Origin: a virus | IMG/VR virus record: IMGVR_UViG_3300045988_055014 | Location: 1 to 64,000 of that record | DNA length: 64,000 nt | Direction: 5' to 3' (one strand) | Shown here: piece after piece, positions 5,353 to 62,725 of the stretch | How positions within the stretch are numbered: the first letter of the stretch is position 1 | Layout of the letters: each line of letters opens with the position of its first letter | Program-made: the position numbers and the translations under genes | The notes under the pieces: model-generated | Told to the model about the DNA's origin: nothing | Seen by the model: the letters and a program-made list of their open reading frames with translations, nothing else | The model's database searches: none

Positions 5353-6298
5353 CTTTATGCTGACTATATCTTAATTTGGCATTTCGTCCATACATAACCA
5401 TACATGCTAGGTTTTTCACCTGAACATACAGCATATATATTATGTACTTTGTAATTAGGATTTTCTTTTATAATATCTTTAACTCTATTCCATTCCTTTA
5501 TGAATACACCTTCTTTAGTATATTGCTTAATAGTGTATTTAGTTAAAGCTTTAGATACTTTATTTGCCATTATATTTTTAGTATTTGGATTTTCTTTCCA
5601 AAATTTAGAAGATTTTTCTCCTATTTTCTTACGTTCTTCTAAGTTTTTAAATCTATTTTTCTGAGCTTCAGAATATCTATTTTTAGTTTCTTGTAAGGGT
5701 ATCATTCCTAATATTGAATGATCTCTTCTAAGATTATATCCTTTTTCTCTATTAATAGTATCTAAACTTGTTATATAATGGTACTCTTTATCTTTTAAGT
5801 TTTCTGTAGTATATTCTAATACTTTATAATCAAAAGCATCGGAACCATATTTATTCCAATCTTCTATAAAGTACTTATTATCTTGTTTAAATTTGTTATT
5901 TTTTAAATAAGATTTATGTGCATTTATCCTAGAATAAATATCTTTACTACATCCTATATACTGCTTTCCGTTTACAGTACAGATTATACTGTAAATACCT
6001 GATTTTTTCCAATCTATACGTCTTCCTTTCATAATGTTCTTTTTTATTTTTAAACGTATATATGGATAATAGGTTGCCAAATTCCTCACGTTTCGTACAA
6101 AATGTACTACGTCTTCACAGACTAGTCGATGAACACATATCCAAAGTGGATACTTCGCTGCGGATTACACCTTTACTATGATTTTACAATCCGATAAGCG
6201 TTATCTTATCTGCTACACAATCTATTACTAGTTGCTGCTGTTATAGTAAAGTTTAAACGCTTTCCCGCAATTAGTGAGGTTACGACGCTGCATCACTT
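5353..6298 (-). mobile_element. group I intron (946 nt) carrying a GIY-YIG homing endonuclease ORF
   Basis: Interrupts PolB motif A. Exon 1 ends in U (6299) and the intron ends in G (5353). P1: exon CGACGU (6304-6299) pairs with intron GCGUCG (6288-6283), with U.G at the splice site. P10: intron GAUGCA (6294-6289) pairs with exon 2 UGCAUC (5352-5347). Confidence 0.75.
5364..6032 (-). CDS. GIY-YIG homing endonuclease (intron-encoded)
   Basis: GIYSIICTVNGKQYIGCS...R..H motif. ATG at 6032 (the track ORF starts at an upstream GTG, 6089). Ends with TAG at 5364-5366. Confidence 0.8.
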   Translation of the reverse strand: MKGRRIDWKKSGIYSIICTVNGKQYIGCSKDIYSRINAHKSYLKNNKFKQDNKYFIEDWNKYGSDAFDYKVLEYTTENLKDKEYHYITSLDTINREKGYNLRRDHSILGMIPLQETKNRYSEAQKNRFKNLEERKKIGEKSSKFWKENPNTKNIMANKVSKALTKYTIKQYTKEGVFIKEWNRVKDIIKENPNYKVHNIYAVCSGEKPSMYGYVWTKCQIKI

Positions 6299-7317
6299 AC
6301 GTCGATATCTATTAACATTTCATCTTCCTTAGGAATAATTATCTCAGGTTTGTTTTCAGAGTGAATACCACCAACTCCTACAGAATATTTTAATCCTCTA
6401 AATACAAATTTGTTTTCGTATCCTTTTCTACCTGGTGATACTATCTGCTTTTTCATATCAGATAGTACATTACGAAGTATAGGATCTTTATATTCTATAT
6501 AAGGCAATATTACTTTGTTTAGGTCTATAACATCTGCTGGGCTTCTTAAATCTTTAATATCCCACCATTTTAAGCCTGTCTTTTCAAGATATTTCTGCGT
6601 TAGAATTTTCATTCCAATGTTTACTCCATCTTTACTTAACACTCTTACTCCATATTCATCTTCGATAGCTATTCTTAAATCTACATCTTCCTTACACCGA
6701 TTTAATAATTCTTCAGTAGAATTAACATCATTCACATTATACTCTATCATCTCTTCTATTCTATCTTCTTCCAAAAACTTATTAAAGTCTCCATCAAATT
6801 CTAGAACATTAGGATATTGCATAGTTACTTGCATTTCCTTCAACCCAACACGTAGTTTCTGTGAATATAACATAGTAAGTATATCAAATGAATCATACCA
6901 TACTTGATATTTCCATTTTTTCCATGCTTCTATGTTGTCATCTGCTTGAGATGTAGTTATAGTTCTACTTAAGTTAAAAATACTATCACATATTCTTAGA
7001 TATGGTTTATTTTTAAGTATATCATAATAATCTATTATATAGTTAATAATAGGATTATCATAATGTAAATTATTATATCCCGCAAAGATTTTATTTGAAT
7101 CAATTTGAGTTTCAGTAGTATAGAGATCTCCAAATTTTAATGGTGCATTAATATTTGGTACACGAAAAAAATCAACTAATTCTGATAATTGATTTTTTCT
7201 GCTTGATATCTCAAACTTATGAAACTCCCCTGTTTCAGTATTCTTTGCTGTGCAATGAAATACATTAGGGAAAACTTCAATATCATAAACATATACTGTT
7301 TTTCCTCTTATCTTCAT
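6299..7317 (-). CDS. DNA polymerase family B, exon 1 (3'-5' exonuclease domain)
   Basis: Exo I YDIEVFPN, Exo II NNLHYDNPII, Exo III YNVNDVNSTEEL. The track ORF 6280..7317 runs into the intron and stops at an intronic TAA. Confidence 0.8.
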
Positions 7318-15133: not shown

Positions 15134-15679
15134 TTAATAATCTGTTTTCTGTTTAAGTTTTTGTCTTGCTTTGTTTAAATCACCTTTTACAGCTAATTCA
15201 TTCATTGCAAACTCTTTAGCTATTTCTTTATAAGATAAGCCATCTATACGAGCATTGATTAAATCTCTATATTTCTTTTTTAAAGTAGGTATAGCTTGTA
15301 AGACTATATCTAATTTTTCCTTTAGAATTAAATTTTCTTCAGGACTCTTCTCTAAATCAGATAGTTGAATAGGACTTTCATCTTCATCAATATAGTTATT
15401 TAATTGCTCTTTTTTATTTCTACGTATATAATCAATTGATGCATTTACAGCAATTGTTTTTAACCACATTTCAAATGAAATATGATTTACATAAGTAGAA
15501 AGTTTCTCATAAGCTTTAGTGAATACTATAGATGTTAAATCATCAGCAACATCCGTATTTTTTACTACATTAAGTATAGTATACCAAATGTTTGATTTAT
15601 ATCTATAATATAATTCGCTAAATGCTTTTTGAGAACCTTTTTTAGCTTGCTCTATGAGATCAATAATTTCTTGCGTCAT
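15134..15679 (-). CDS. RNA polymerase sigma-70 family factor (ECF-like)
   Basis: 181 aa. Region 2-like AFSELYYRYKSNIWYTILNVV...DDLTSIVFTKAYEKL...WLKTIAVNASIDYIRRNKK. Region 4 HTH LSYKEIAKEFAMNELAVKGDLNKARQKLK. Confidence 0.7.
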   Translation of the reverse strand: MTQEIIDLIEQAKKGSQKAFSELYYRYKSNIWYTILNVVKNTDVADDLTSIVFTKAYEKLSTYVNHISFEMWLKTIAVNASIDYIRRNKKEQLNNYIDEDESPIQLSDLEKSPEENLILKEKLDIVLQAIPTLKKKYRDLINARIDGLSYKEIAKEFAMNELAVKGDLNKARQKLKQKTDY

Positions 15680-18575: not shown

Positions 18576-18648
18576 TTCACGGAGTGGGACTCGAACCCAC
18601 ACTCTTAGGCATTGTCTGCTTGTGTCTAACCAATTGCACGATCCGTGA
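18576..18648 (-). ncRNA. tRNA-like element with a non-canonical anticodon arm
   Basis: 73 nt. Perfect 7-bp acceptor TCACGGA/TCCGTGA (U1:A72) and a canonical T-arm GTGGG-TTCGAGT-CCCAC. The D-loop AATTGGTTA is normal. The central arm folds only as AAGCA-GACAA-TGCCT (5-nt loop, one A.C mismatch, no U33), so no anticodon can be assigned. Confidence 0.5.
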
Positions 18649-18904
18649 CCCTTAGTTTTATATTCTATATCAAAGAATACTTTGAGGCGACTGTCACTAT
18701 TTCTAGCGTTCTAGCCTATTTCACAACCCCGTCAAGAATAACCGCTTCTCTTTAAATAAAGAGTTGATAAACTAGGATTACGGTATTACTCCCCTAGAGA
18801 TTATCACGCACTCAGGCGAGTATAATCTGTTACAAAATGTTTGTCATTTCTGACGTTTATTGACCTATTCATTTTCATCCTCGCTGTCAAAACCATAATG
18901 CCCC
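18649..18904 (-). ncRNA. ssrA: tmRNA-like, coding piece (5' acceptor strand + tag frame) of a permuted gene
   Basis: The minus strand from 18904 reads GGGGCATTATGGTTTTGACAGCGAGG, matching the tmRNA 5' consensus GGGGnnn..GGnUUnGAC. A candidate tag frame ...DYTRLSA ends in tandem stops TGA-TAA (18806-18801). The 3' end is placed at the abutting tRNA-like element and is uncertain. Confidence 0.6.
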
Positions 18905-19045
18905 AATGTGCCGTTATACGCTACGGTCAAACGGCAGCTAACGGTTCTTTGCTGCAACCGTGCGGGACACTCCGTTATTGGACTAGTTATATGTACACGT
19001 ACATTTTTAGTTTGTTCCAACTGTTTTATTCAACCGCAAAGGGCG

Positions 19046-19100
19046 TGGAGCATGAGGGAGTCGAACCCTCGTCCAAACGATTCATCCAATGACCTAACAG
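19046..19100 (-). ncRNA. ssrA: tmRNA-like, acceptor piece (T-arm + 3' acceptor strand) of a permuted gene
   Basis: Minus strand reads ...TCGTTTGGAC-GAGGG-TTCGACT-CCCTC-ATGCTCC-A (19080-19046). ATGCTCC pairs 7/7 with GGGGCAT at 18904-18898, including G3:U70. It lies UPSTREAM of the 5' half, separated by a 141-nt intervening segment (19045-18905). Confidence 0.65.
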
Positions 19101-19466
19101 TCAATATACTTTTATTTCTATAGGATTATCTCCAAAACACATATTTCTTTTATCAAATGGTACATAATGAGTACATAAGAATCCTGCATCATTAAATAGT
19201 TTAGCTGTACCTATTGGTACACTAATAGAATTATTATGTTTTAGATCTATCCACCAACTTCTTTTTGTTGTTTCATGAACATATCTAACAGGTTTATTAT
19301 AGAATAGATGTTCACCCCACATATCTGCTGCAATATAGCTCATGATAAATAATTTTAAGTTGTAAATATAAAGAGCTTTGCACACCTCTGCGCCTTCATA
19401 TCCTGGCAGATTGGATAACGCCTCAATTAGAGAGATATACATCATACACGAGTTTTCATATATCAT
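19101..19466 (-). CDS. hypothetical protein
   Basis: The track ORF starts at TTG 19487. The first ATG is at 19466. The stop TGA 19103-19101 directly abuts the tmRNA acceptor piece. Confidence 0.45.
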   Translation of the reverse strand: MIYENSCMMYISLIEALSNLPGYEGAEVCKALYIYNLKLFIMSYIAADMWGEHLFYNKPVRYVHETTKRSWWIDLKHNNSISVPIGTAKLFNDAGFLCTHYVPFDKRNMCFGDNPIEIKVY

Positions 19467-19572
19467 TGGGTTGATATAATAGTGCAATATACTCTTTTAG
19501 TAGTATAGAAAGCGATCAAACTCTCTATACTTAATATGTAATTCTAAAGTAATAGTACATACTGTTGATTAT

Positions 19573-19969
19573 TAGCATAAAAGCATTGAATCTAGTATAT
19601 AATAGCATAAAGCTGCTATTACTTTAGAATTTATAGTCTTTGACAGAATACATATTATACCAAGTGCTCATCTAGCAAGCTAGAGACTCAATTGAAATAT
19701 AGACATAAAGTACTATATGTATATGTATTTTGATATACTTACTGTTTTTCGTCTATGAGACTATCCTTTATTTTATTAGCATAAAAGCATTTAAATAAAG
19801 AATGATCTATTTATAGCACATGATCAGTAGGCATAATATCCTATTACTAGCATAAAAGCATTGAATAGAACTGTCAATTCAGTTCATTTTGCCTGAATTT
19901 TTTAGTGCGACAATGCGACTTATATAATCTGCAGGGCTTACTTTTACTCTATTTAGCATAAAAAGCATT
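19573..19969. repeat. four dispersed copies of the motif TAGCATAAAAGCATT
   Basis: Copies at 19573-19587, 19777-19791, 19848-19862 and 19954-19969 (the last has one extra A), plus a partial AATAGCATAAAGC at 19601-19613. All lie in the 500-nt intergenic region between two minus-strand genes. Confidence 0.8.
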
Positions 19970-19986
19970 TAGAGTTTGGATGTTGA

Positions 19987-20436
19987 TTAAAGATAGATGT
20001 TTTCGTATCTTGAACCAAAGACTTCTTCTTTCGCTTTTGCGATAGATTCGTCTTTCTTTTCTGTAAGTTCTGAATACTGTTTGTCCCAAGCTTTATAATC
20101 ACCGGTAGCTTCAAATTCAGCTTGAGCTTTCTTCAGACTTTCAGAAAAGTCTTTCATAATGTTTTTATGTTTTGATGCAAAACGTCCGTATCTTTCAGCT
20201 CTAGAAACAGCCTTTTCACAGTCCTGAATTCTACGTTTTACTTCACGAGAATCACGTTCAAGTTGTTCCTGTTGAATCTGTTTCTTTGCTTCAGTAACTG
20301 CCGATGCTTCAACTTTGCCGTCTTTTTCTTCTTGAGCTTTCATTCCAGCTTCAAAGTTATAACTTCCATCAGTTGCTTTGTCACATAACATTGTTGCACC
20401 TAACATAATTCCTTCAGGGTTCATAAAATTTTTCAT
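19987..20436 (-). CDS. hypothetical coiled-coil protein
   Basis: 149 aa, Glu/Lys-rich and heptad-like. Confidence 0.55.
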   Translation of the reverse strand: MKNFMNPEGIMLGATMLCDKATDGSYNFEAGMKAQEEKDGKVEASAVTEAKKQIQQEQLERDSREVKRRIQDCEKAVSRAERYGRFASKHKNIMKDFSESLKKAQAEFEATGDYKAWDKQYSELTEKKDESIAKAKEEVFGSRYENIYL

Positions 20437-20485
20437 AATTCTTTTGATTTTAATTGTTAATAATTGATTTATTTAAGTGAATGAA

Positions 20486-20620
20486 TCAACTCCATAAAGT
20501 ATCTGATAAACTTCTGCGATAGATCTCATCTCTTTCTTCTTGAATATCTATCTGCATTTGAATAACAATACTTATCAGTTCTTCTTTTGTTTTCTTTTCT
20601 AGTTCTTCTTTTGTCCACAT
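20486..20620 (-). CDS. hypothetical small protein
   Basis: 44-aa ATG-to-TGA ORF, below the track cutoff. Weak support. Confidence 0.3.
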   Translation of the reverse strand: MWTKEELEKKTKEELISIVIQMQIDIQEERDEIYRRSLSDTLWS

Positions 20621-20813
20621 AATAATAAAGAAATAGAAAGTTATACTATCTATTCGTACGCCTTATTTGATAGCTAGCCCTTTTCCTTCTCCTGACCTTA
20701 AATAAGGTTGACCGTTGTATAGTCCGTAGGTATTAATCACCTTTAGGGGTCTGGCGTTATAACCTTCTTTGTTGATTGGATTCTATCATAACTACTTAAT
20801 TAGTAATTCTTAA

Positions 20814-20945
20814 TTAGACAATAGCTCTTTTCCTTTTATACGGTTGCATTTTAGAATGTTTAACCTTTTTCTTAGACTGATATTCTGCTGCTTTTCCTGA
20901 TTGTTTAGAACCTGGAAAATGAGATTCTTTATAGGTCTTTCCCAT
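20814..20945 (-). CDS. hypothetical small basic protein
   Basis: 43-aa ORF beginning 3 nt after the stop of ORF 20949..21338. Weak support. Confidence 0.3.
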   Translation of the reverse strand: MGKTYKESHFPGSKQSGKAAEYQSKKKVKHSKMQPYKRKRAIV

Positions 20946-20948
20946 AGC

Positions 20949-21338
20949 TTATAACACTCTAATAGCTTGCATTAAAAGATCAAAGATATAAGCACATCCT
21001 TTTTTCTTAAGATATGCAATTGTAACCTCTTTTTCATTCAACATCATTTCGATTTGAGTTCTGGTTAATTTACCATCTTCAATCAATTTCCAGAAATTGG
21101 CATTGATTGCAGCAATATTCATTAAACCAGCAGCAGTACATACTGTAATAACATCTTTTAAGATAGCTTCGATTGCTTGTGCATTTGAAGTACTAGTGGC
21201 AAATTTACTTGTTTCAAGTATTTCTGTATGTACTTCTTGTAGACCAAGTTTTTTAGCCATAAGAGCTACAGCTGTTACAATACTCTCCTGATTAATTGAT
21301 GCAGGAATTCCAATAATTACAAAGTTTAAAGATTTCAT
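20949..21338 (-). CDS. hypothetical protein
   Basis: 129-aa ORF, no motif recognised. Confidence 0.55.
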   Translation of the reverse strand: MKSLNFVIIGIPASINQESIVTAVALMAKKLGLQEVHTEILETSKFATSTSNAQAIEAILKDVITVCTAAGLMNIAAINANFWKLIEDGKLTRTQIEMMLNEKEVTIAYLKKKGCAYIFDLLMQAIRVL

Positions 21339-21349
21339 TTGATATGAAT

Positions 21350-21619
21350 TTAAAGTTGTTTATAAATTTCTTGACTATAGTACTTACCGCATCTTTCACA
21401 GTAAGTTCTTTTAGTAATAGTAATATTTAATTCATTGTTATTGGGCTCATTTTTCCATTTATGCCCATGAATCAAACATTGTGAACGTAATGCAACTTCT
21501 TTTTGCCGTTTAGGATTACTTAATAATTCTATTTCAGCAAGTCGTTTAATGTTACTCTGATAGGCTTTTAGCCTTCTGTAACTGCTAATTTTTAGCTTAA
21601 TTTTCTTAAAAATATTCAT
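21350..21619 (-). CDS. hypothetical protein with a C-terminal Cys/His cluster
   Basis: The track ORF uses TTG 21691. The first ATG is at 21619. C..H..H...C..C pattern (CLIHGH...CERCGKY). Confidence 0.45.
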   Translation of the reverse strand: MNIFKKIKLKISSYRRLKAYQSNIKRLAEIELLSNPKRQKEVALRSQCLIHGHKWKNEPNNNELNITITKRTYCERCGKYYSQEIYKQL

Positions 21620-22099
21620 TCTTACATATTTAATAGTTTTAATTATACAACATTTTGAGGACGTCCAGCTGCAACTGGAAGGTTTTATCAATCTTAATTA
21701 TATATTAACACACGTTTTTACTATACGCTTACAGTAAATGAAGAAATTAATACGTAATTTATACAACATATTGCAGTATATTGCAGGCTTGACGATTCAC
21801 ATAGTTGTTCGGCTTCTACACCAATACAGCTTAATTGAAATACTAATTAAAAATGACTCTCACTTAGTTTTAACTCATAAGCAGATATAGCTGTCAAACT
21901 AATCTTATTGGAGTACATGGTTTTAACGTCTGCACTAATACTAATCTCCGCCACCTACCTTCAAACGGCATTTGAACTACTGTTCTCCTGTCATCTGACC
22001 CGATTAGATATAAGCCCCACATGTTTGTCACTGATTCTCACAGTAAGGAGGCAGCTGCATCTATTCTCACGAACCAATACAGCTTTGTCTGATTTAATT

Positions 22100-31184: not shown

Positions 31185-31257
31185 TGGAGCGTAACGTAAT
31201 GGTAGCGTCGCCGGCTCTAACCCGGTATGTGTGTGGGTTCGAATCCTACCGTTCCAA
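31185..31257 (+). tRNA. suppressor tRNA, anticodon CUA (reads UAG); Gln-like
   Basis: TGGAGCG-TA-ACGT-AATGGTA-GCGT-C-GCCGG-CTCTAAC-CCGGT-ATGTGT-GTGGG-TTCGAAT-CCTAC-CGTTCCA-A. All stems pair. The anticodon loop has U33, CUA at 31217-31219 and A37. U1:A72, G2:C71 and G3:C70 match bacterial tRNA-Gln. Confidence 0.85.
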
Positions 31258-31273
31258 CTAATTAAAATTAATA

Positions 31274-32203
31274 ATGACGTATAGAGATATAGATCCAAAA
31301 CTAGCTGGAATTTACTTATTTAAAAACAATATAAATGGTAAATGTTATATTGGTCAAGGAGTATCTATAAGAAAAAGACTCAAACATCATCTTAGCAATA
31401 TTAGAAATAAACGATACGATTTACCATTATATAGAGCTATAGAAAAATACGGATTACATAACTTTACTATAGATATAGTAGAATCTTTTATACCCGACGA
31501 ATCAATTACTACAGAACAGTTAATAAATAAATTAGACGATTTAGAAATAAAATACATAGAGCAATATGAAGGGTATACTAAAGGATATAATTGTACTAAA
31601 GGTGGAGACTTTGGTGTTCTTGGTTTGAAGATGACAGAAGAACAAAGAAAGAAAGTTTCTGAAAATACTAAGAAATTAATACGAGATGGAATTATAGGAA
31701 AACGAGTATATATGTACAATTTTATAGATAAGTATTATATATATGCGCATACTATAAAAGCCGCATCTACAATAACTGGTCTAAGCGGATCAAATATAAG
31801 TAAATTATGTAATAATAAATATATACATCCTTTCTGTAACAATTTTATTGCTGACTTTTCTAAAGAAGAATTAGAGAAGAAAAAAGACAAAATATACAGT
31901 TTGTGGAAAGAATATGAAACTAATAGACATTGCAATTCTGACTGGTATAAAGGTATGCCTGGTTTAAATAAAGGAAAAAAGATGTCAGAAATACAAAAAG
32001 AGAAGTTAAGAAATTCTTCTACAAAATATTTTGTTTATCAATATAGCAAAAATGGAGAATTATTAAATACATTTAAAGGTATGCATAATGCTGCAAAAGC
32101 AGTAAATACGGATTATAATTCTATTAAAAGAGCTTGTAATGGTAAAGCTAAAACATGTAAAGGATTTACTTGGAAGAAAGAATTGATACAATCTACTTGT
32201 TGA
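31274..32203 (+). CDS. GIY-YIG homing endonuclease (free-standing)
   Basis: GIYLFKNNINGKCYIGQGVSIRKRLKHH. C-terminal repeated DNA-binding modules. No in-frame TAG. Sits between the suppressor tRNA and TerL. Confidence 0.8.
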   Translation: MTYRDIDPKLAGIYLFKNNINGKCYIGQGVSIRKRLKHHLSNIRNKRYDLPLYRAIEKYGLHNFTIDIVESFIPDESITTEQLINKLDDLEIKYIEQYEGYTKGYNCTKGGDFGVLGLKMTEEQRKKVSENTKKLIRDGIIGKRVYMYNFIDKYYIYAHTIKAASTITGLSGSNISKLCNNKYIHPFCNNFIADFSKEELEKKKDKIYSLWKEYETNRHCNSDWYKGMPGLNKGKKMSEIQKEKLRNSSTKYFVYQYSKNGELLNTFKGMHNAAKAVNTDYNSIKRACNGKAKTCKGFTWKKELIQSTC

Positions 32204-39894: not shown

Positions 39895-41361
39895 ATGGAT
39901 AATAATATTCTTAATAACCTCCAATTATACAAAGGTAAATGGTTTTCTGATTTGATCGACACTAATAAGATTAGTCTCGCTTCTCAGCAAAGACCTTATG
40001 AGGTATCTACTATCCTGTCATACGTATTTGGTACTAAAGATAATGGTTACAGTACTTCTCTTGATATGTTGACAGGTGGTCTTGGAAATGTAATGACTAT
40101 TGATCAGCCTTCATTTGAATGGGGTGTTATGATTGACCAGGATAGAGCTGTTACAATTCGTGACGCTAAATGGAATGGTGCTGCAATTGATGAAAATTCT
40201 ACTCCAGGTTTGGGTAATACACCTATCACTTTGTGGTTGGAAGATGCATGGTTTGGTCCTGGTGCTACTATCGAATTTGATGATAAGAGTCAGGCACGTA
40301 TTCAGGATGCTCCGTATCAGGATGGTAATCTGTATGTTTATACAGTATTTGTATCTAATGGTAGCCCCGCTTCTTATATTGACCCTGCTGTTTTAGCTTC
40401 TGGTTGCCAAGTAAACCGTTTGGCTTCTGCTTATGAAGAATACAGTGAAGAGGCTGATATCCTGAATTACAATACTCACTTCAAGATGCGTAACTATTTG
40501 ACTACAGTACGTCTGTCTTATGATATCACAGGTTCTGCTTACTCTACAGTTATGGCAGTAGCTTTGAAAGATCCTAAGACTGGTAAAACTTCTTACTTGT
40601 GGTCTACATTCCAGGAATGGGTTGCAATGCGTGAGTGGTACAAACGTCTTGAAAGAGCTTTGGTATACAATCAGAACAATGTAAACAAAGATGGTTCTTG
40701 TAATCTGAAAGGTAAGAATGGTCGTCCTGCATTTATTGGTGCTGGTTTGTTGGAACAGATTGCTCCGTCTAACAGACGTTATTATACTCGTTTGACAGCT
40801 GAACTGTTGGAAGACTTCTTGTTTGACCTGTCTTACAATGTATTAGGTACTAATGAACGTAAGTTTGTTGCCTTGACTGGTGAAATGGGTATGCGTGAAT
40901 TTGACCGTGTACTTAAAGAAAAGATGGCTAACATGAACTTGATTGACACAGTATTCGTAACTGGTTCTGGTGATAATTTGAAGTTCGGTGGTCAGTTTAA
41001 GACTTACGCAATGTCTAATGGTATTGAATTGACTTTGAAGTATTTCCCGTTGTATGACAATACTACTTACAATCGTCAGTTGCATCCTGTTACTTTGAAA
41101 CCGTTGGAATCTTACCGTATGACATTCTTGGATTTAGGTCGTCGTGATGGTGAAGCTAATATTGTTAAAGTAGTTCGTAAAGATCGTGAATTCGTTAACT
41201 GGTGTACAGCTGGTTCTGTAACTCCTGCTGGTTACGCTCACTCTAATACAGAAGTTCGTTCTAATGCTAAGGATGGTTACTCAGTACACTTCTTAGGTGA
41301 GGTAGGATTGATGTTGAAAGATCCTCGGGCGTGTGGGGAGCTAATCATGATGGCAGAATAA
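39895..41361 (+). CDS. major capsid protein
   Basis: 488 aa, follows the scaffold-like gene, no in-frame TAG. Markedly different codon choice (CGT/GGT/CTG-rich, higher GC), consistent with very high expression. The family call rests on size, position and recollection only. Confidence 0.7.
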   Translation: MDNNILNNLQLYKGKWFSDLIDTNKISLASQQRPYEVSTILSYVFGTKDNGYSTSLDMLTGGLGNVMTIDQPSFEWGVMIDQDRAVTIRDAKWNGAAIDENSTPGLGNTPITLWLEDAWFGPGATIEFDDKSQARIQDAPYQDGNLYVYTVFVSNGSPASYIDPAVLASGCQVNRLASAYEEYSEEADILNYNTHFKMRNYLTTVRLSYDITGSAYSTVMAVALKDPKTGKTSYLWSTFQEWVAMREWYKRLERALVYNQNNVNKDGSCNLKGKNGRPAFIGAGLLEQIAPSNRRYYTRLTAELLEDFLFDLSYNVLGTNERKFVALTGEMGMREFDRVLKEKMANMNLIDTVFVTGSGDNLKFGGQFKTYAMSNGIELTLKYFPLYDNTTYNRQLHPVTLKPLESYRMTFLDLGRRDGEANIVKVVRKDREFVNWCTAGSVTPAGYAHSNTEVRSNAKDGYSVHFLGEVGLMLKDPRACGELIMMAE

Positions 41362-41459: not shown

Positions 41460-42434
41460 ATGTTAAGTTACGAAGTATATAAGATTACAAATAAAGTAAA
41501 CGGAAAAGTTTATATAGGTATAACTAATAGAGGAGCTGGTGCTAGATTTAAACAGCATCTATTTGAAGCTGAACACGGCTCCTCTTTTAGATTCCATAAC
41601 GCTCTTAGAAAGTATGGAGCAGACGGATTTGATATCAATATCATATCATTCTGTAAAAATGCAGAAGAACTTAAAGAAAGAGAAAAGTTCTTTATAAAAG
41701 AATACGATTCTACAAATCCCGAGAAGGGATACAATATGACAGAAGGTGGAGATGGTACTTTTGGTAGACCTTGTTCTGAAGAAACTAAACAAAAAATAAG
41801 TATAGCTAACTCTGGTAAAACAGCTAGTGAATATACTAGAAAGTTATTATCTGAAGCGGGTAAAGTGCGAACAGAAGGTAGAGATAAGTATTGGAAATCT
41901 GGTAAAATCGGTGAAACTAGAAAAAAACCAGTATTACAATACACTTTAGATGGAGATTATATAACAGAATATAGTGGTGTAAACGAAGCCAGTAGAAAAA
42001 CTGGAATAAGTACTTCATTAATAATATCATCCTTAAAAAGGAAAAGAGTATTAATATCTGAAAGAAACCCATATATATGGTTATATAAAGAAGATTATAA
42101 AGAAATTCCAAGTAAAGTAGATCCATCTTTAGCAGCTATACTACCAGATTGGAAACCACAGATTTCTGATAAATGTAGACAGGCTAACATAGAGTCTAGA
42201 AAAAATAAAGTAAGAACTGCTGAAGAATTAGCTTTAATAAAACAAAGAGCTACAGAAGCATGCGGAAAGAAAGTACTACAATATTCATTAGATGGAAAAT
42301 TGTTAGCAGAGTTTGATAGTATATCCGAAGCTAGTAAAAATACAGGTCAAGATAGAAAAACTATAGCTAATAGTGCTAATGGAAAAACAAAAGTAACTAA
42401 ATCTACCAAGTTTATTTGGAAATACAAAGAATAA
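41460..42434 (+). CDS. GIY-YIG homing endonuclease (free-standing)
   Basis: VYKITNKVNGKVYIGITNRGAGARFKQH...YNMTEGG. Repeated C-terminal NUMOD-like modules. No TAG. Confidence 0.8.
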   Translation: MLSYEVYKITNKVNGKVYIGITNRGAGARFKQHLFEAEHGSSFRFHNALRKYGADGFDINIISFCKNAEELKEREKFFIKEYDSTNPEKGYNMTEGGDGTFGRPCSEETKQKISIANSGKTASEYTRKLLSEAGKVRTEGRDKYWKSGKIGETRKKPVLQYTLDGDYITEYSGVNEASRKTGISTSLIISSLKRKRVLISERNPYIWLYKEDYKEIPSKVDPSLAAILPDWKPQISDKCRQANIESRKNKVRTAEELALIKQRATEACGKKVLQYSLDGKLLAEFDSISEASKNTGQDRKTIANSANGKTKVTKSTKFIWKYKE

Positions 42435-52675: not shown

Positions 52676-53299
52676 ATGGAAGAAATTTGGAAAGACGTAA
52701 AAGGTTTTGAAAGTTTATATATGGTTAGTAATTTAGGGAGAGTTAAAAATGTTCCACATTATGTTACTAGAAAATATTATAGACCTTCTACTGGAGATAA
52801 TATTGAAGATAAATTGTATATAAAAGAAGTGTTGTTAAATCCTAAAAAGAAGTACCATCATAAAGATAGAGGGATATATAACTATTTCTATTATGGAGTA
52901 AGTCTTCGTAAAGATGGTAAGTATTACAACAAATCAATACATCGTTTAGTGGCAGAAGCTTTCTTACCTAATCCTGACAATCTGCCTTGTGTAAACCACA
53001 AAGATGAGAACAAATTAAATAATTGTGTAGACAATTTAGAATGGTGTACTTATCAACACAATAATGTTTGGAAAAATAGATTAGCTAAAAGTTTAGAAAC
53101 GTTTAATGCAAATCCTAAAAATAGAAGGAAAGTATATCAATATACAAAAGATGGAGCATTCATTAAAGAATATGAATCTGTAAAAGAAGCTACTAAAGAA
53201 ATGGGTTTAAAGCACAGTAGTGGAATATATCTTAGCTGTAATCATAATAATTGCTACGCAAGAGGCTTTAAATGGTCTTTTAACTCTCCTTCCTTATAA
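52676..53299 (+). CDS. HNH homing endonuclease (NUMOD4-type N-terminus)
   Basis: MEEIWKDVKGFESLYMVSNLGRVKN...VNHKDENKLNNCVDNLEW. No TAG. Confidence 0.75.
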   Translation: MEEIWKDVKGFESLYMVSNLGRVKNVPHYVTRKYYRPSTGDNIEDKLYIKEVLLNPKKKYHHKDRGIYNYFYYGVSLRKDGKYYNKSIHRLVAEAFLPNPDNLPCVNHKDENKLNNCVDNLEWCTYQHNNVWKNRLAKSLETFNANPKNRRKVYQYTKDGAFIKEYESVKEATKEMGLKHSSGIYLSCNHNNCYARGFKWSFNSPSL

Positions 53300-54119: not shown

Positions 54120-57100
54120 ATGGTAACAAATAGGATAATATTTTTTGCAACGTCTGTTCAACCTAATCCCGAAGAGATAGACTATTGGGTTGACTTATCT
54201 GATAATCCTTATGGTGGTAGTATTAAATATTTCAATGGAACCGAATGGGTAAGACTATCTGCTTCAGGTGGTATACCAGACCTCAGCAATTACTATACTA
54301 AAACACAAGTAAATAATTTGCTTAATAATAAAGCAGATGTTAGTGATGTAGATAGTAAAGTAGATGATGAAGAGGTTAAAGATGTAATAAAAGATATATA
54401 GTTTAATACTTCTAATTCTAATGACATTACTATGGTAATGTTTAAGTATGATGGAAGTAATAAAACTGTTTCAATACCAGTAGCTTCTACAAGTTCTGCT
54501 GGTATCATTACATCTAAAGATTTCTTAGACTTTGTTAAGCAGCATCAGTTATAGGAACTTCATACTGAGATGATTGATACCTTTGCTGATATACGTGCAA
54601 AGTATTAGAAGAAACTCATTGCAGGTTTGAACATTGAAATTGATCAAGAAACTAATGTAATTAGTGCATCTGGTGATCTAGCTGTACAATGGGATGCTAT
54701 TACTAACAAACCAGATTTTAAACCAGTAGCTACATCTGGTGATTATAATGACTTAATTAATAAGTTAAAGCCGGGTAAAGATGTTAGTATTAGTGAAGAT
54801 AATACGATTAGTATTGCTATTGATTCAGATTCATTGGAACAGTCTTTAGCTACTTTACAAAGTAATATAGATAAAGAAGCTGCTACTGCTCGTGCTGCTG
54901 AAACTAAATTAGGCAATGATATAGCTACTGAGAAGAATAGAGCTCAATCTGCTGAATAGACTATTAGTACTAATTTACAGAATGAAATTGATAGATCTAC
55001 TCAGATAGATACTCAACATACTAATGCTATAAACAAAGAAGTACAAGATAGAAAAGAAGCTATTGCTACAGAAGTTAGTGATAGAAATGCAGCTATCTTA
55101 GTAGAAACTAATAGAGCTAAGGCTAAAGAAGAAGAGTTAGACAATAAGATTACCAATCATACTGCTGCAACTAATGCAGCATTAGCATTAAAAGCAGACA
55201 AGTCTGATACTTATACTAAGGCACAAGTAGATGCTAAATTATCTGGCGCTTATAAAGTAAAAGGATCTAGTACGTTTGAAACTCTACCTAAAGACAACAA
55301 TGTAGTTGGTGATGTATATAATATTACTAATGCATTTAACTTAGGTGGTAAACATTATGATGCTGGTACTAATGTAGTATGGACTGAAGATGGTTGGGAT
55401 GCTTTATCAGGTTCATTTGATACTACTGCTATTGAAGGTAGTATTCAAGAAGTAGCTGATGATTTAGCTCAAGAGATATTAGATAGAACTCAAGCTGATA
55501 CTACTATCAATAACAATGTATCTTCATTATCTAACAGAGTAAAAGTGAATGAAGATAAACTTACTATTATTAATGGTAATGAATCTACTACTGGTTCTAT
55601 AGCTAATGCTATTAAGCAGGCTAAGTCATATACAGATACAACTGTAACAGCTGAATAGACTAGAGCAGAGAAAGCAGAATAGAAACTAACTAGTGATTTA
55701 GCTAGTGAAGTAACTAGAGCTAAAGGCGCTGAATCAGCTAATGCTACAGCTATAGCAAATGAAGTAGAAAGAGCTACTGGTGTAGAAGAAGCTTTAAGAA
55801 CAGATGTAGAAGATTTAACTGGTTAGGTATTAATTCTTGAAAAGACTAAGGTTGATAAAGTTGGAGGTAAAGGTCTTAGTACTAATGATTATACTACTCC
55901 TGAAAAGAATAAACTAGCTGCTATAGAAGCTGAAGCTAATAAGTATGTATTACCTGCTGCTACAGCTAGTGCATTAGGTGGTGTTAAGATAGGTAGTAAT
56001 ATAACACTAGCAGATGGTGGTACTATCAGTATAACTAAGAATAATGTAACTAGTGCATTAGGTGTAGATCCTACTACTACTTATGTAAAGAAAGCTGGTG
56101 ATACTATGACAGGAGCTTTAACAAACAGTTCCACTATTAGTGGTAGCAAATTGATATCTACTGTATCTACTGGCACTGCACCTATACAAGTATCTTCTAC
56201 TACTCTGTGTACCAATCTGAATGCAGATATGGTAGATGGTTATGGAGTTTCAGAATTTAATAGTAATAGTATATCTGTTAAGTATTCTATAAATAGTGTA
56301 AATTAGGCTAACGCTGAAAATTGGATTAAAGTTTGCACGTTACCATTAGTTGATTAGGAAATAACATAGGATAAAAAAGCAGTATTTGAAATAGTTGGTG
56401 GAGCGGATTCTGGTGAAAAATATACTTATTATGGAATATTGACTGCTTCTACTAGATATGTAGAAAATGTAGAATTACGTATTTTAAGTAGTATGGCTAT
56501 CCCTTCTGTTGCTGTATTTATAGCTGGATACGTTGTTACGTCTAATGAAGTAGAAATATGGATTAGAACTAGTGCATAGTGGGGAACAAACACTAATATA
56601 GTATGTAAATGTGCTTCTACTCATACTAAGAACATATTAAGTAGTCCAGCCACTACATAGAGACCAAGTAATTTTGTATTAGGTAACATTAAAATATTAG
56701 ATGCTCCAGATTGGTATGGTGTATCATGGTCAGAAACATCATCTAGTCCAGATTGTACTCGTATTGGTAATATGGATATGCATAGAACACTGCCTATATA
56801 GAGTATGATGAAAGGATATCTTTATTTTAAAGACGGAAATCCTTTATATAGGATGTTAAAGCTAAATGATAGTTGGACTAAATGTGAAAATTATTCTGCT
56901 GGAGGATGGAGAGATGTAGATACTTTACTAGAAGACAATAACATAAATGTAATGATTAAAATACCTGAATTTTGGTGGATAGATGATTATATAGAATCTA
57001 CTGAAACACATAATTTAAAAATATGTCCACATGCTAAACCAGGATGGTATCATCATAAAGAAGCTTATGTGTCTGCTTATGAAGGTTATATTGATGGGAA

Positions 57101-57935
57101 TTATTATAGATCTTCTAAAAATAAAATACCCAGTGTTAATTTCACAAGATCTGCTGTAAGACCAAAAGCGAGAGCTAATGGTTTAGGAAATTCGTGGAAT
57201 ATATATACATATAATGAACATAGAGCCATATGTCATTTATTCTTAATAGAATATGCTACTAGAAATAGCCAAAAAGCAGTTAATACCGCATTAACAGTTG
57301 AAGGATTTAGACAAGGTGGATTAGGTTCTGGTTGTACTACGGGAATAGCTACTATTAACGGAGATAAAACTTGGTCGTTTATTCCTACTGGAAGTTCTGA
57401 TAGTTTAGGTAGTGGTTCTGGTGAAGTTACAGTAACTATACAATAGACAGATTCATCTGGCTCTAATACTACAACTACTACAAGAAAGTGTAATAGATAT
57501 AGAGGAATAGAGAATCCATTTGGGCATGTGTGGAAACACACTGACGATGTTATTAGTGCATATATTTCTGGTTACGGCGCTAGATTTTGGTATAAGTGCG
57601 ATTCTCCAGATCATTTCGGTGATTCTATCTTGAATGATAATTCGTACTATAAAAATATAGCAGCAAATGCTGTAGTTACTGGATACAAAACAAAAATAGT
57701 AACTACGTCTACGTGTGACTTTTTCGCTTTATCTTGCAACAATGGTTCAGAAACAACATACTGGTGTGACTATAATTGGGACAATACGGATGGTTCATTA
57801 CATTGTTTGTTAATCGGTGGTCGCTCTGACAATGGCGGCGGGGCGGGTCTGTTCGGTCTTATTTCCACTGATGGGGTTGGTAATTCCGCTGCTCATATCG
57901 GTTCTCGATTAACATATCTCCCGTGGGCGGAGTAA
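54120..57935 (+). CDS. long tail fibre; DGR target protein with a C-terminal C-type-lectin-like variable region
   Basis: Frame 3 is open from ATG 54120 to TAA 57933-57935 through more than 15 TAG. It joins track ORFs 54120, 54627, 56106, 56805 and 57528 (1271 aa). The C-terminus GGRSDNGGGAGLFGLISTDGVGNSAAHIGSRL overlaps the VR. Confidence 0.75.
57806..57906 (+). repeat. DGR variable repeat (VR)
   Basis: Gapless 101-nt alignment to 58020-58120. 29 mismatches, every one opposite an adenine in the TR copy. Confidence 0.85.
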
Positions 57936-58019
57936 TGACTTAATTATGCAATACGGTATAGTTAAGTAATACCCACAGGTTGCTTCTCTAGAATTAGAAC
58001 GAGTATGCATTATTAGTTT

Positions 58020-58120
58020 TAAGTAAAAAAGTAGTAACTCTGACAATAGCAGCAAAGCAGGTCTATTCAATCTTAATTCCAATAATGAGGTTAGTAATTC
58101 CAATGCTAATATCAGTTCAA
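58020..58120 (+). repeat. DGR template repeat (TR)
   Basis: 41 adenines, 29 of them substituted in the VR. All 60 non-A positions are identical. AAY/AGY codon-rich in the VR frame. Confidence 0.85.
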
Positions 58121-58259
58121 TGAAATTGCGTATCATAATATTTTCAGTTTATCATATAATAGCCAACTACTGAGAAGGACCTTACCACTTGGTAAAAAAT
58201 ATAAATAATTTATTAAGGGTTAGTAGTGAAATATCGAAAGCTCTTTGTAATTTCAGACT

Positions 58260-59288
58260 ATGAAGAAATTTAAGAATTTATATTAGAAGATAACAGATTT
58301 AGAAAATATAAAACTAGCTCACCACAATGCTAGAAAGAATAAAACTCACAGAGATGATGTAAAAAAAGTAGATGAAGATATAGAAGGATTTTGTAAGTAG
58401 ATACAAGATATGTTAATCAATCATACTTATAAAACTTCTGAATATTTTACTTTTAAGTTATATGAACCTAAAGAAAGAATAATATTTAAACTACCTTACT
58501 TTCCAGATCGTATAGTACATCACGCCATTATGAATATAATGGAACCTTTGTGGATTAATTAGATGATACCTTAGACTTATAGTTGTATCAAGAAAAGAGG
58601 AATTCACAAAGTTCTTAGGTAGATATAGCATGATCTAAAAGATAGAAAGAATACTAAATACTGTCTTAAAATAGATATTAGAAAGTTTTATCCTTCAGTA
58701 GATCACGATATATTAAAATAGATAATTAGAATAAAAGTATCAGATAGGGAACTATTATAGTTACTAGATGAGATAATAGATTCATCAGATGGAGTACCTA
58801 TTGGTAATTACTTATCTTAGTTCTTTGCTAATCTGTATCTATCTTACTTTGATCATTGGGTTAAAGAAGATAAAAACATAAAGTACTATTATAGATATGC
58901 AGATGATATAGTAATACTTTATAAAGATAAAGAGTCTTTGTAGACATTACTTAGAGATATAAAGTAGTATTTAAAAGATAACTTAAAACTATAGTTAAAG
59001 AATAATTATCAGGTATTCCCAGTAGAAAGTAGAAGTATAGATTTTGTTGGATATAAAATATATCGCAACTTTACTTTAGTTAGAAAAGTATTAAAGAAAA
59101 AATACTGTAAGAAGAATGCCAAACTGAATAAAAGAAGTACTAACTATAAATATTATAGAAGAAAGATGGCTAGTTACATAGGATGGTTTAAACACGCTAA
59201 CTGTTATTCTTTACTTACTAAAACTATTAAACATAAAGAGCTATTAGATTACCTGGATATACGTAAGGGAAATAGAACATACGAATAA
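58260..59288 (+). CDS. DGR-type reverse transcriptase (TAG read as sense)
   Basis: 342 aa through 12 TAG. Motifs PYFPDRIVHHAIMNIMEP, CLKIDIRKFYPSVDH, IGNYLSQFFANLYL and YYRYADDIVIL. Completely fragmented in the standard-code track. Confidence 0.85.
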
Positions 59289-62146: not shown

Positions 62147-62725
62147 ATGGAAGAGATTTGGAAAGATATACCCGGATATGAAAATTACTATCAAGCTAGC
62201 AATCTAGGTAGAATAAGAAGTAAAGATAGATTGATAATTGTTAATGATTATCAAAACGCGCATGCATATTGTAAAGGATTTAGTTATGTGAGACCAGGTA
62301 AAGTATTAAAAGCTAGAAAAAATATGTGTGGTTATTTAACAGTTCCTATTTGTATTAATAAAAAGACTAAAAGTATATCAGTTCACAGATTAGTAGCTAA
62401 AACTTTTATAGAAAATAAATATAATCTACCACAAGTTAATCATATTGATGAAAACAAATTAAATAATAACATCAATAACTTAGAATGGTGTACAGAACAA
62501 TATAATATGAACTATAATAATCTAGTTAGTAGAAGAGCTTTTAAACAAAGAACTACTAATAGCAGATGTAAGAAAATAATAAGTATTGATAGTGCTGGTA
62601 AAGAAACAGAGTATATTAGTATCCGAGGTGCTGCTAGAGAATTAAATTTGAATCAAGCCAATATTCAAGCTGCTATAAAATATAGCAGAAGATGCGGCAG
62701 ATTATATTGGAAAATTAAAAATTAA
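62147..62725 (+). CDS. HNH homing endonuclease (NUMOD4-type N-terminus)
   Basis: MEEIWKDIPGYENYYQASNLGRIRS...VNHIDENKLNNNINNLEW. Paralogous to 52676..53299. No TAG. Confidence 0.75.
   Translation: MEEIWKDIPGYENYYQASNLGRIRSKDRLIIVNDYQNAHAYCKGFSYVRPGKVLKARKNMCGYLTVPICINKKTKSISVHRLVAKTFIENKYNLPQVNHIDENKLNNNINNLEWCTEQYNMNYNNLVSRRAFKQRTTNSRCKKIISIDSAGKETEYISIRGAARELNLNQANIQAAIKYSRRCGRLYWKIKN

Follow-up and report, generated by a model that had tools for sequence, protein, structure and literature searches.

Diversity-generating retroelements (DGRs) are already known in crAss-like phages, including cassettes without Avd, cassettes whose reverse transcriptase (RT) genes are amber-suppressed, and cassettes of the Suoliviridae. 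The prototype is the DGR of the Bordetella phage BPP-1, which comprises the mtd VR, avd, the TR and brt. The DGR of crAssphage LMMB and genus I of the Intestiviridae has the order target, VR, TR and RT, lacks avd and targets a tail fibre whose gene closes the structural block (Morozova et al. 2020, PMC7290462). An accessory gene (avd or HRDC) is common, yet missing from about a quarter of DGRs, and the absence of avd is usual among crAss-type DGRs (PMC7290462). In the DGRs of the Zeta crAss-like phages, which also have suppressor tRNAs, an RT with the GxxxSQ motif is interrupted by TAG and is similar to the RTs of the Suoliviridae and the Intestiviridae (PMC12386605). A close relative of the present locus is in cr6_1 (Afonbuvirus faecalis, NC_055894), where the same cassette is recorded as the tail protein gp24 and the 'Reverse transcriptase' gp25. 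In that record the TR and the VR are unannotated, and the RT is noted as 'Intron reverse transcriptase'.

The window, the whole stretch of 64,000 nt analysed here, comes from a Suoliviridae crAss-like phage. Its ORFs match the Pfam families Crass_capsid (E 3.4e-205) and CrAss_Ring_2 (2e-69), and the region is about 89-90% identical to cr6_1 (Suoliviridae; Bearivirinae; Afonbuvirus). The locus where the fibre gene ends is read, with a probability of about 0.9, as a functional Avd-less DGR. Its phage is a TAG-recoded, crAss-like member of the Crassvirales (Suoliviridae) and is close to Afonbuvirus faecalis cr6_1. The DGR is a correct and ordinary case that leaves the principles of DGR knowledge unchanged. 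The cassette shares with cr6_1 the TR (101/101), the surrounding DNA (about 89%), the order of tail protein, RT, holin and lysis regulator, and an identical suppressor tRNA, whereas the cr6_1 VR differs at A positions and carries an in-frame TAG. The gene order, the lack of avd and a tail-fibre target that closes the structural block are also found in the LMMB DGR. However, that DGR belongs to the Intestiviridae and uses the standard code, whereas here both the RT and the target are TAG-recoded and the target is another, much longer protein. The Zeta phages differ in clade and genome size, and some of their DGRs have avd and several TR-VR pairs, in contrast to the single TR, single VR and missing avd found here. 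The resemblance to BPP-1 extends to the RT family, including the residues for catalysis and dNTP contact, to a TR that precedes the RT, to a VR that occupies the 3' end of a receptor-binding tail-fibre gene, to changes specific to adenines and to a structured RNA in the TR-RT spacer.

The repeat pair and its ends

The initial annotation had proposed a complete DGR, in which a DGR-type RT and a TR accompany a VR, mutagenised at adenines, in the 3' end of the fibre gene. This core was supported by the repeat pair, the RT match and the population variation, and all the coordinates and counts were reproduced (Table 1). The word complete holds for the RT, the TR and the VR, which are all present, but not for the accessory gene avd, which is absent.

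Table 1. Positions of the features of the cassette and of the suppressor tRNA within the window.
Feature	Position	Strand	Description and evidence
Suppressor tRNA, anticodon CUA	31185-31258	+	ARAGORN; Rfam tRNA 54.5 bits; at the head of the late-gene block
DGR target, tail-fibre protein, 1271 aa	54120-57935	+	ORF under the TAG-sense code; 14 in-frame TAG (Gln)
VR, maximal extent	57806-57906	+	Fibre codons ~1230-1262; differs from the TR at 29 sites, all of them TR adenines
Inverted repeat	57935-57970	+	Immediately past the fibre stop; arms of 13 nt, loop of 10 nt; repeat search and DNA fold
Long-range helix, 5' strand	57978-57988	+	GGTT-G-CTTCTC; RNAduplex, covariation
TR	58020-58120	+	Intergenic, non-coding; TAA in the VR frame
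Long-range helix, 3' strand	58172-58181	+	GAGAAG-GACC; RNAduplex, covariation
Rfam RF03020 (RT-17) match, TR-RT spacer	58178-58260	+	Whole model matched
Hairpin P1	58182-58195	+	UUACC-ACUU-GGUAA; RNAalifold; lies within the RT-17 match
DGR RT, 342 aa	58260-59288	+	Pfam RVT_1 3.2e-21; 12 in-frame TAG codons

The VR and the TR align without gaps over 101 nt. Of the 41 adenines in the TR, 29 are mismatched and 12 kept, and the non-A positions are identical throughout (60/60). Sliding the TR over both strands of the window gave 60/60 non-A matches at the VR and the TR only, with a runner-up of 32/60 and a background of 14.7 +/- 3.8. Since the perfect score is unique and the next best is so much lower, the match is not due to chance and a second VR is absent from the window. 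The complete cr6_1 genome, searched in the same way on both strands, likewise showed no second VR (next best, 32/60 in the window and 32/51 in cr6_1). The TR contains ten AAY codons and one AAA codon. The VR and the TR are separated by a gap of 113 nt, and the avd gene of BPP-1 has no counterpart between them.

The homology stops at the first non-A mismatch, directly past 57906 and 58120. Comparison of 33 genomes that share the same TR showed that the differences at TR index 2, 5, 8 and 10 near the 5' end are invariant, that the one at index 1 is nearly so (T in 31 and C in 2), and that those at index 94, 99 and 100 near the 3' end are invariant as well. Because these end differences do not vary among the 33 genomes, the truly diversified tract spans ~57815-57897. 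The limits first given to the VR and the TR therefore stand as those of the 101-nt ungapped match, but the outermost ~9 nt at each end hold fixed differences and are not diversified. The final ~10 nt (VR ATCGGTTCTC, TR ATCAGTTCAA) contain three fixed, never-transferred differences, as expected of IMH/IMH*, and those of the VR behave as an IMH-like fixed end. The long GC-rich IMH of the BPP-1 type is absent here, and the TR/VR homology just ends after the 10 fixed nucleotides. The inverted repeat that follows the fibre gene may be the hairpin or cruciform known downstream of VRs, or it may be the terminator of the fibre gene. In alignments read by eye, other clades have differently sequenced hairpins at the same place.

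Variation of the VR among related phages

Activity was assessed by comparing assembled genomes, not reads. The TR is 100% identical in the 33 genomes (101/101 in the 32 others), and their VRs are all different (33/33). The entropy among these genomes is 0.98 bit at the TR-A positions, 0.016 bit at the non-A positions and 0.02 bit in the VR-TR gap, which confirms across assembled genomes the expectation that the variation is limited to sites opposite TR adenines. All four bases occur at the TR-A sites of the VR. In the wider set of related genomes, 47 of 47 VRs are distinct and each AAY or AAA codon shows 9-14 amino acids, with no TAA or TGA. The distances between VRs do not track the divergence of the flanks (r 0.07). 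Two genomes (L028 and L029) have flanks that differ at 7 of 6919 positions (0.1%), whereas their VRs differ at 13 of 101, all 13 opposite TR adenines; these differences point to recent activity. Thus, the DGR is genuine and apparently active, rewriting the tip of the fibre gene in a gut crAss-like phage, with the activity in this particular genome judged from its relatives. The TR has been lost in three related loci (L053, L076 and L077).

The tips of crAss-like tail fibres evolve fast via several routes (PMC10136315), so ordinary recombination within a duplicated segment, or positive selection acting on it, could in principle explain the hypervariability without reverse transcription. Such an origin is hardly credible. 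The mismatches affect 0 of the 60 non-A positions and the entropy is confined in the same way, all four bases are present at the TR-A sites, and the copy of the repeat next to the RT is invariant. Neither recombination nor selection predicts variation confined to adenines, the use of all four bases or an invariant RT-side copy, and both are disfavoured for this reason.

In nearly all VRs, G stands opposite seven or eight of the TR adenines within the tract, and at the observed G frequency of 0.30, conversion of the full tract would seldom (about 2e-4) yield a viable fibre, which counts against the reading as a functional DGR.

The reverse transcriptase and the RNA around the TR

A comparison of the RT with PDB sequences gave 8ub7_A as the best match (E 2.4e-42, residues 2-320), the 328-aa RT of entries 8ub7-8ube, presumably that of the Bordetella phage DGR. 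The RT also matches phrog_1423 (4e-123). The motif IGNYLSQ at residues 181-187 is of the DGR-clade form [I/V/L]GxxxSQ, and YADD is located at residues 213-216. The overlapping stretch LSQFFANLYL covers residues 185-194, and its glutamine (Q187) is encoded by the TAG at 58818-58820. Alignment with bRT places R73, I181, S186-Q187, D139 and YADD opposite R74, I181, S186-Q187, D138 and YMDD, respectively, showing that the catalytic residues and those that contact the dNTP are kept. The incoming dNTP is contacted in bRT by R74, I181 and Q187 (bioRxiv 10.1101/2023.10.23.563531).

The RefSeq note 'Intron reverse transcriptase' on cr6_1, cr115_1 and cr53_1, together with several homing endonucleases and probably introns in the window, could suggest a group II intron or retron origin for the RT, with no relation to the repeat pair. 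This assignment is extremely improbable. Group II intron and retron RTs reached only about 1e-14 in the PDB comparison in which the DGR RT matched over its full length at 2.4e-42. The GxxxSQ motif is present, the protein of just 342 aa has no maturase or En domain, and the Rfam search gave the DGR-type RT-17 and no group II intron RNA. In addition, we know of no other source of a mismatch pattern restricted to adenines.

No avd (PF05635), HRDC or other accessory-type gene was found by a Pfam scan of the window ORFs of at least 60 aa with TAG read as Q, and the annotation of the complete cr6_1 genome lists none. To our knowledge, the only biochemically studied DGR RT requires Avd.

The TR is enclosed by a long-range helix, whose pairing was found by RNAduplex in 16 of the 16 sequences tested, from ~7 lineages. 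Compensatory changes occur in 8 of its 10 pairs, and 99.4% of the cells are paired compared with 40-65% when the strands are slid, with 0 of 500 shuffles reaching the score, in a test on motif-anchored fixed-length segments of 11 distinct sequences whose design leans towards structure. Such segments were used because plain MAFFT alignments left the 5' strand of the helix out of register; RNAalifold on the plain alignments returned the hairpin P1 only. Of the five predicted pairs of P1, one shows an A-U to G-C compensation in 5 sequences. The hairpin is directly followed by a run of adenosines (58196-58200). [quoted passage not shown] The MFE fold of the whole RNA is no better than those of shuffles (z -0.9), and the case for an RNA structure thus rests on covariation and Rfam and not on energy.

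The succession of a TR-enclosing duplex, a stem-loop and adenosines is the layout of the 'cPRT Stop' element of DGR RNAs and resembles that of BPP-1, although the spacer matches RT-17 here and not RT-10 or Phage_DGR. The original description of RT-17 goes no further than 'near RT genes'; it proposes a role in DGRs for RT-10 and speculates on one for the others (Weinberg et al. 2017, PMC5737381). [quoted passage not shown] The locus is therefore a compact natural Avd-less DGR with a well-defined RNA (enclosing helix, hairpin and RT-17 motif), usable for testing how the RT primes and stops without Avd.

In the proposed mechanism, an RNA of ~57975-58260 would be transcribed that holds the helix-enclosed TR, followed by the hairpin, the A-run and the RT-17 motif. 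The RT would then reverse-copy the TR into cDNA with misincorporation opposite adenines, and this cDNA would take the place of the VR in the 3'-terminal part of the fibre gene. Such an exchange would re-randomise ~11 codons (AAY or AAA in the TR) and a few partly variable ones, leaving the scaffold residues that are coded without A unchanged. By analogy with the Bordetella phage, the synthesis of the cDNA and its priming would proceed in a similar way. We further infer that the cDNA replaces the VR, that this takes place late and that the variable tip binds the receptor.

TAG recoding and the target fibre

The fibre and the RT have ORFs only when TAG is a sense codon. With TAG as sense, the total length of the ORFs of at least 100 aa increases from 36.4 to 58.6 kb, and the in-frame TAGs fall mostly in late ORFs (135, vs. 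7 in early and 1 in middle ones). The RT is the most TAG-rich gene of the window: TAG accounts for 12 of the 14 Gln codons, and the frame is free of TAA and TGA interruptions. Orthologues have TAG, CAA or CAG at the 12 TAG positions of the RT, with one exception. The suppressor tRNA is identical to the one annotated as tRNA-Gln in cr6_1 and has the pairs U1-A72, G2-C71 and G3-C70, which are typical of bacterial tRNA-Gln. TAG is read as Gln (genetic code 15) in the late genes, and the late-gene TAGs, the tRNA(CUA) and the Gln codons of the orthologues bear out the reading that the initial annotation had made tacitly. Translation of the fibre and of the RT needs the tRNA(CUA); the RT, which has 12 TAG codons, can be made only when the phage tRNA is present. 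ARAGORN labelled this tRNA 'tRNA-Pyl', its default name for a CUA anticodon, and the label was rejected. A permuted tmRNA that ARAGORN placed at 18713-19135 was also rejected, as it is without Rfam support.

Under the standard code the RT resembles a pseudogene with 12 stops. Together with the absence of avd and the loss of the TR from the three related loci, this could indicate a relic cassette, a former fibre-diversifying DGR that is now inactive in this genome and whose VR/TR differences are frozen history. However, all the 12 apparent stops are TAG, read as Gln and kept as Gln codons in the orthologues, with neither TAA nor TGA in the RT. The TR has stayed 100% conserved in the 33 genomes while their other DNA diverged by up to about 10%, the RNA helix and the RT-17 motif are intact, and two near-identical genomes differ at 13 A positions of the VR. 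A relic is thus unlikely, and a functional DGR remains the preferred reading.

The N-terminal part of the fibre is coiled and repeat-rich, and the VR lies in a C-terminal domain of ~330 aa of the receptor-binding type. This domain matches phrog_5302 'tail protein' (1.9e-59), and over 2800 homologues occur on crAss-like contigs; the orthologues in cr6_1 and cr53_1 are annotated as 'tail protein'. In contrast to the target of BPP-1, the domain has no detectable sequence similarity to solved structures, a profile search of the PDB sequences giving no match. A profile search of 1.84 billion representatives returned 4919 relatives, of which the best 150 are all close family and none is tied to a named fold. 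The initial annotation had called the C-terminus encoded by the VR typical of targets with a C-type-lectin fold (CLec), for which sequence and structure searches gave no usable link. Pfam showed no CLec match for the fibre, for 36 family members (E<=10) or for the small homologous targets of locus L070. Two AF2 models, built from 36 and 68 sequences with a 91-94% identical homologue as input, have mean pLDDT values of 62 and 63, with values below 35 in the VR region. Foldseek searches with these low-confidence models gave no CLec match in the PDB, and the BFVD matches were limited to crAss-like and other phage tail proteins or uncharacterised ones. The sole pointer to a CLec fold comes from cr53_1, whose depositor annotated the orthologue as 'similar to sulfatase, major tropism determinant'.

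The diversified tract marks ~11 varying residues at the fibre tip of an abundant, still uncultured gut phage lineage. These residues point to the receptor-binding surface of the phage and may help explain its persistence against changing Bacteroidales surfaces.

Stop-codon recoding and the DGR could also be functionally coupled, in timing and in codon space, with the RT working without Avd on a prototype-like RNA. This proposal is tentative and is given somewhat less than an even chance. The RT is the most TAG-dependent gene, down to Q187 of its active site, so its production possibly has to await the phage tRNA(CUA), and mutagenic retrohoming would then be confined to late infection. In codon space, reading TAG as Gln would remove one of the stops that adenine mutagenesis can create, and would leave the TR free to use codons other than AAY; two natural VRs have an in-frame TAG at the AAA codon of the TR. 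If the proposal is correct, an Avd-less RT would act on an RNA that keeps the enclosing duplex, the hairpin and the A-run of the Avd-dependent prototype. DGR finders that use the standard code would miss the locus because the RT is broken by its 12 TAGs, as has also been pointed out for the Zeta phages (PMC12386605).

Adenine-confined variation of the fibre repeat

The initial annotation of a diversity-generating retroelement (DGR) was based on an ungapped 101-nt alignment between a variable repeat (VR) at the 3' end of the fibre gene and a template repeat (TR), and this alignment was reproduced. The TR contains 41 adenines, of which 29 are changed in the VR (A-to-G 17, A-to-T 6 and A-to-C 6) and 12 are unchanged, with no mismatch at the 60 non-A positions. 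The TR was slid along both strands of the window and scored at the non-A positions only. The full score of 60/60 was reached by the VR and the TR itself, with a runner-up of 32/60 and a background of 14.7 +/- 3.8 over both strands. Thus, the repeat is far beyond chance, and this scoring detected no second VR in the window.

The reverse transcriptase (RT) has 452 relatives in IMG/VR, and 80 of these loci were retrieved. The TR is identical to that of the window at 101/101 nt in 32 of the 80, giving, with the window, 33 genomes with one TR and 33 distinct VRs. The mean column entropy among these 33 genomes is 0.98 bit at VR positions opposite TR adenines, 0.016 bit at the remaining VR positions, 0.02 bit in the VR-TR gap and 0.40 bit in the 120 nt 5' of the VR. 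The initial annotation had proposed mapping reads for variation restricted to TR adenines; VR variation is so confined here, in a cross-genome equivalent of that mapping that is no substitute for reads of this genome. The homology of TR and VR stops on both sides where the first non-A mismatch occurs. The VR-TR differences at TR index 2, 5, 8, 10, 94, 99 and 100 are fixed in 33/33 genomes, index 1 is almost fixed (T31/C2), and the varying positions span index 9 to 91. Thus, the diversified tract covers about 57815-57897. The 3' ends of the repeats, ATCGGTTCTC in the VR and ATCAGTTCAA in the TR, behave like the IMH/IMH* pair of other DGRs in that their differences are never transferred. The VR end lacks the GC-rich IMH of the type found in BPP-1, the Bordetella phage with the prototype DGR.

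The VR is unique in each of 47 genomes of the window's clade. Two of the related genomes (L028 and L029) differ at only 7 of 6919 flanking positions (0.10%), whereas their VRs differ at 13 of 101 positions, all 13 opposite TR adenines. VR distance and flank divergence show no correlation over all pairs (r 0.07). Thus, VR turnover is much faster than genome divergence. Each of the ten AAY codons and the single AAA codon of the TR yields 9-14 amino acids in the VRs of the 47 genomes, and the GAC and ATC codons yield four. TAA and TGA occur in none of the 47 VRs. An in-frame TAG is found in two, L001 (the cr6_1 genome) and L011, at the TR AAA codon (window 57840-57842); this TAG arose by adenine mutagenesis and, being read as Gln, is tolerated.

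At several adenines of the TR inside the tract, which belong to AGY and GAG codons, almost every VR has G and so encodes Gly. The near-invariant arrangement recurs in a clade with an RT of only 59% identity. Freely varying VR sites use A at 40%, G at 30%, C at 17% and T at 14%, frequencies from which a full-tract conversion is computed to regain all Gly codons in ~2 of 10,000 cases. The simplest reading is strong selection, which does not account for the retention of A in the TR at these sites. In three further loci (L053, L076 and L077), a VR-like, A-mutated sequence stands beside the spacer where the TR would lie, just 5' of the RT, and no separate TR was found. The pattern resembles either the loss of a TR by recombination with the VR or a repeat that collapsed in the assembly.

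Recoded genes of the cassette

The fibre and RT ORFs are absent under the standard code. Reading TAG as sense yields both the 1271-aa fibre and the 342-aa RT, and ORFs of at least 100 aa then add up to 58.6 kb rather than 36.4 kb. The late genes (plus strand, beyond 32 kb) contain 135 in-frame TAGs, compared with 7 in the early genes (minus strand) and a single one in the middle block; the split in TAG use between 1-25400 (-) and 32227-64000 (+) is sharp. Where the RT has its 12 TAGs, 50 orthologues carry TAG, CAA or CAG with one exception, indicating that TAG is, by codon comparison, read as Gln. The tRNA(CUA) of the window is identical to a cr6_1 tRNA annotated as tRNA-Gln. The TAG share of Gln codons is highest in the RT (12/14). 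Within the late block, neither the gene for the major capsid protein (39895-41361) nor any homing-endonuclease gene contains an in-frame TAG. The Pfam matches Crass_capsid (E 3.4e-205) and CrAss_Ring_2 (2e-69) identify the window as a crassvirus. In the DGR region, identity is 91% to MT835473 and 89% to NC_055894, the record of cr6_1 (Suoliviridae, Bearivirinae, Afonbuvirus faecalis). The cr6_1 cassette is the same and its TR identical; its record labels the RT 'Intron reverse transcriptase' and leaves both TR and VR unannotated.

The RT matches Pfam RVT_1 (3.2e-21) and phrog_1423 'Reverse transcriptase' (4e-123). By far its top match among solved structures is the 328-aa RT of entries 8ub7-8ube (E 2.4e-42, residues 2-320), presumably the DGR RT of the Bordetella phage (bRT); group II intron and retron RT structures reach only ~1e-14. 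The alignment pairs R73, D139, I181, S186-Q187 and Y213-A-D-D with R74, D138, I181, S186-Q187 and YMDD of bRT, so the catalytic residues are kept. In bRT, R74, I181 and Q187 touch the incoming dNTP (bioRxiv 10.1101/2023.10.23.563531). Q187, in the GxxxSQ hallmark, is encoded by TAG in the window, and relatives with less or no recoding use CAA or CAG for it. In the GC-rich, non-recoded locus L070 (RT 59% identical), small paralogous proteins of 155 and 128 aa (1895-2362 and 2393-2779) lie 5' of the homologous RT, and both end in VR-like ...SSGFAF...GDGSRLCF. These ends suggest that the related RT lineage also serves short, possibly double, targets very unlike the 1271-aa fibre.

The fibre's C-terminal domain is part of a very large family, which comprises over 2800 clusters at 90% identity and 4919 representatives at 50%. 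No Pfam model covers the domain, and no relative of it could be detected among the solved structures. Two AF2 models are of low confidence, most so over the VR, and Foldseek found no C-type-lectin match for them. The C-type-lectin fold proposed in the initial annotation is nevertheless plausible because of a note in the cr53_1 record, 'similar to sulfatase, major tropism determinant'.

RNA architecture and the absence of avd

The RT-17 stretch also gives weaker Rfam matches to RT-14, RT-18 and Phage_DGR. RT-1 to RT-19 are motifs adjoining RT genes; RT-10 was assigned to the BPP-1 DGR spacer, and a DGR role of the others was speculated (Weinberg et al. 2017). RNAduplex showed that the long-range helix pairing recurs in all lineages tested. 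Among 11 distinct motif-anchored sequences, which are few, related and aligned by hand anchoring, 8 of the 10 helix pairs show compensatory changes, helix cells are paired at 99.4% vs. 40-65% with the partner slid, and none of 500 shuffles reached the covariation score. The layout is that of the 'cPRT Stop' element in DGR RNAs with Avd, in which a TR-flanking duplex is followed by a stem-loop and adenosines. The predicted RNA architecture is well supported. The inverted repeat directly 3' of the fibre stop codon may be the hairpin known 3' of VRs or a terminator, its function being inferred; hairpins of other sequence occupy the matching position in other clades, as judged by eye from alignments.

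The VR-TR gap of 113 nt holds no avd accessory gene, no window ORF matches an Avd-type Pfam family, and the complete cr6_1 genome has no avd annotation. The Avd-less target-VR-TR-RT order agrees with that of crAssphage LMMB (PMC7290462). DGRs are frequent in gut phages (PMC8241571) and already known from Alpha, Epsilon and Zeta crAss-like phages, with amber-suppressed RT genes noted in Zeta. Suoliviridae cassettes were also found according to PMC11054128; the main text of the paper it cites for them does not mention DGRs. Thus, the DGR was correctly identified and is of a known kind, its modest interest lying in the link to TAG recoding, the Avd-less state and the RNA architecture.

Features of the window and their coordinates
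Feature	Positions	Strand	Remarks
Fibre gene (DGR target)	54120-57935	+	1271 aa, 14 in-frame TAG
VR	57806-57906		
Inverted repeat	57935-57970	+	13-nt arms
Long-range helix, 5' strand	57978-57988	+	GGTT-G-CTTCTC, upstream of TR
TR	58020-58120		
TR adenines nearly always G in VR	58033, 58048, 58051, 58056, 58059, 58088, 58093, 58114		
Long-range helix, 3' strand	58172-58181	+	GAGAAGGACC, directly 5' of P1
RT-17 (RF03020)	58178-58260	+	Rfam 44.5 bits, gathering score 40.4
Hairpin P1	58182-58195	+	one compensatory pair
RT	58260-59288	+	342 aa, 12 in-frame TAG
tRNA, anticodon CUA	31185-31258	+	head of late block; ARAGORN, Rfam
Weak third tRNA	18576-18648	-	Rfam 33.8 bits, not found by ARAGORN
RAGATH-7-assoc	19370-19497	-	Rfam 138 bits
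RAGATH-9	20634-20779	-	Rfam 122 bits
Hatchet ribozyme	21915-22050	-	Rfam 93 bits
Sigma-70/ECF-type sigma factor	15134-15679	-	Sigma70_r2 + r4_2; early region, phage-encoded
Free-standing homing-endonuclease genes (five)	5355-6089 (-), 31274-32203 (+), 41460-42434 (+), 52676-53299 (+), 62147-62725 (+)		GIY-YIG or HNH/NUMOD

Early and middle regions

The Hatchet ribozyme, RAGATH-9 and RAGATH-7-assoc are intergenic in the early/middle region (19370-22050), and all score above their gathering scores. A permuted tmRNA called by ARAGORN at 18713-19135 (-) lacks support from Rfam and is probably spurious. The endonuclease gene at 5355-6089 lies between ORFs 4218-5333 and 6280-7317, which by eye carry motifs of two DNA polymerase halves, suggesting an intron or a split gene.
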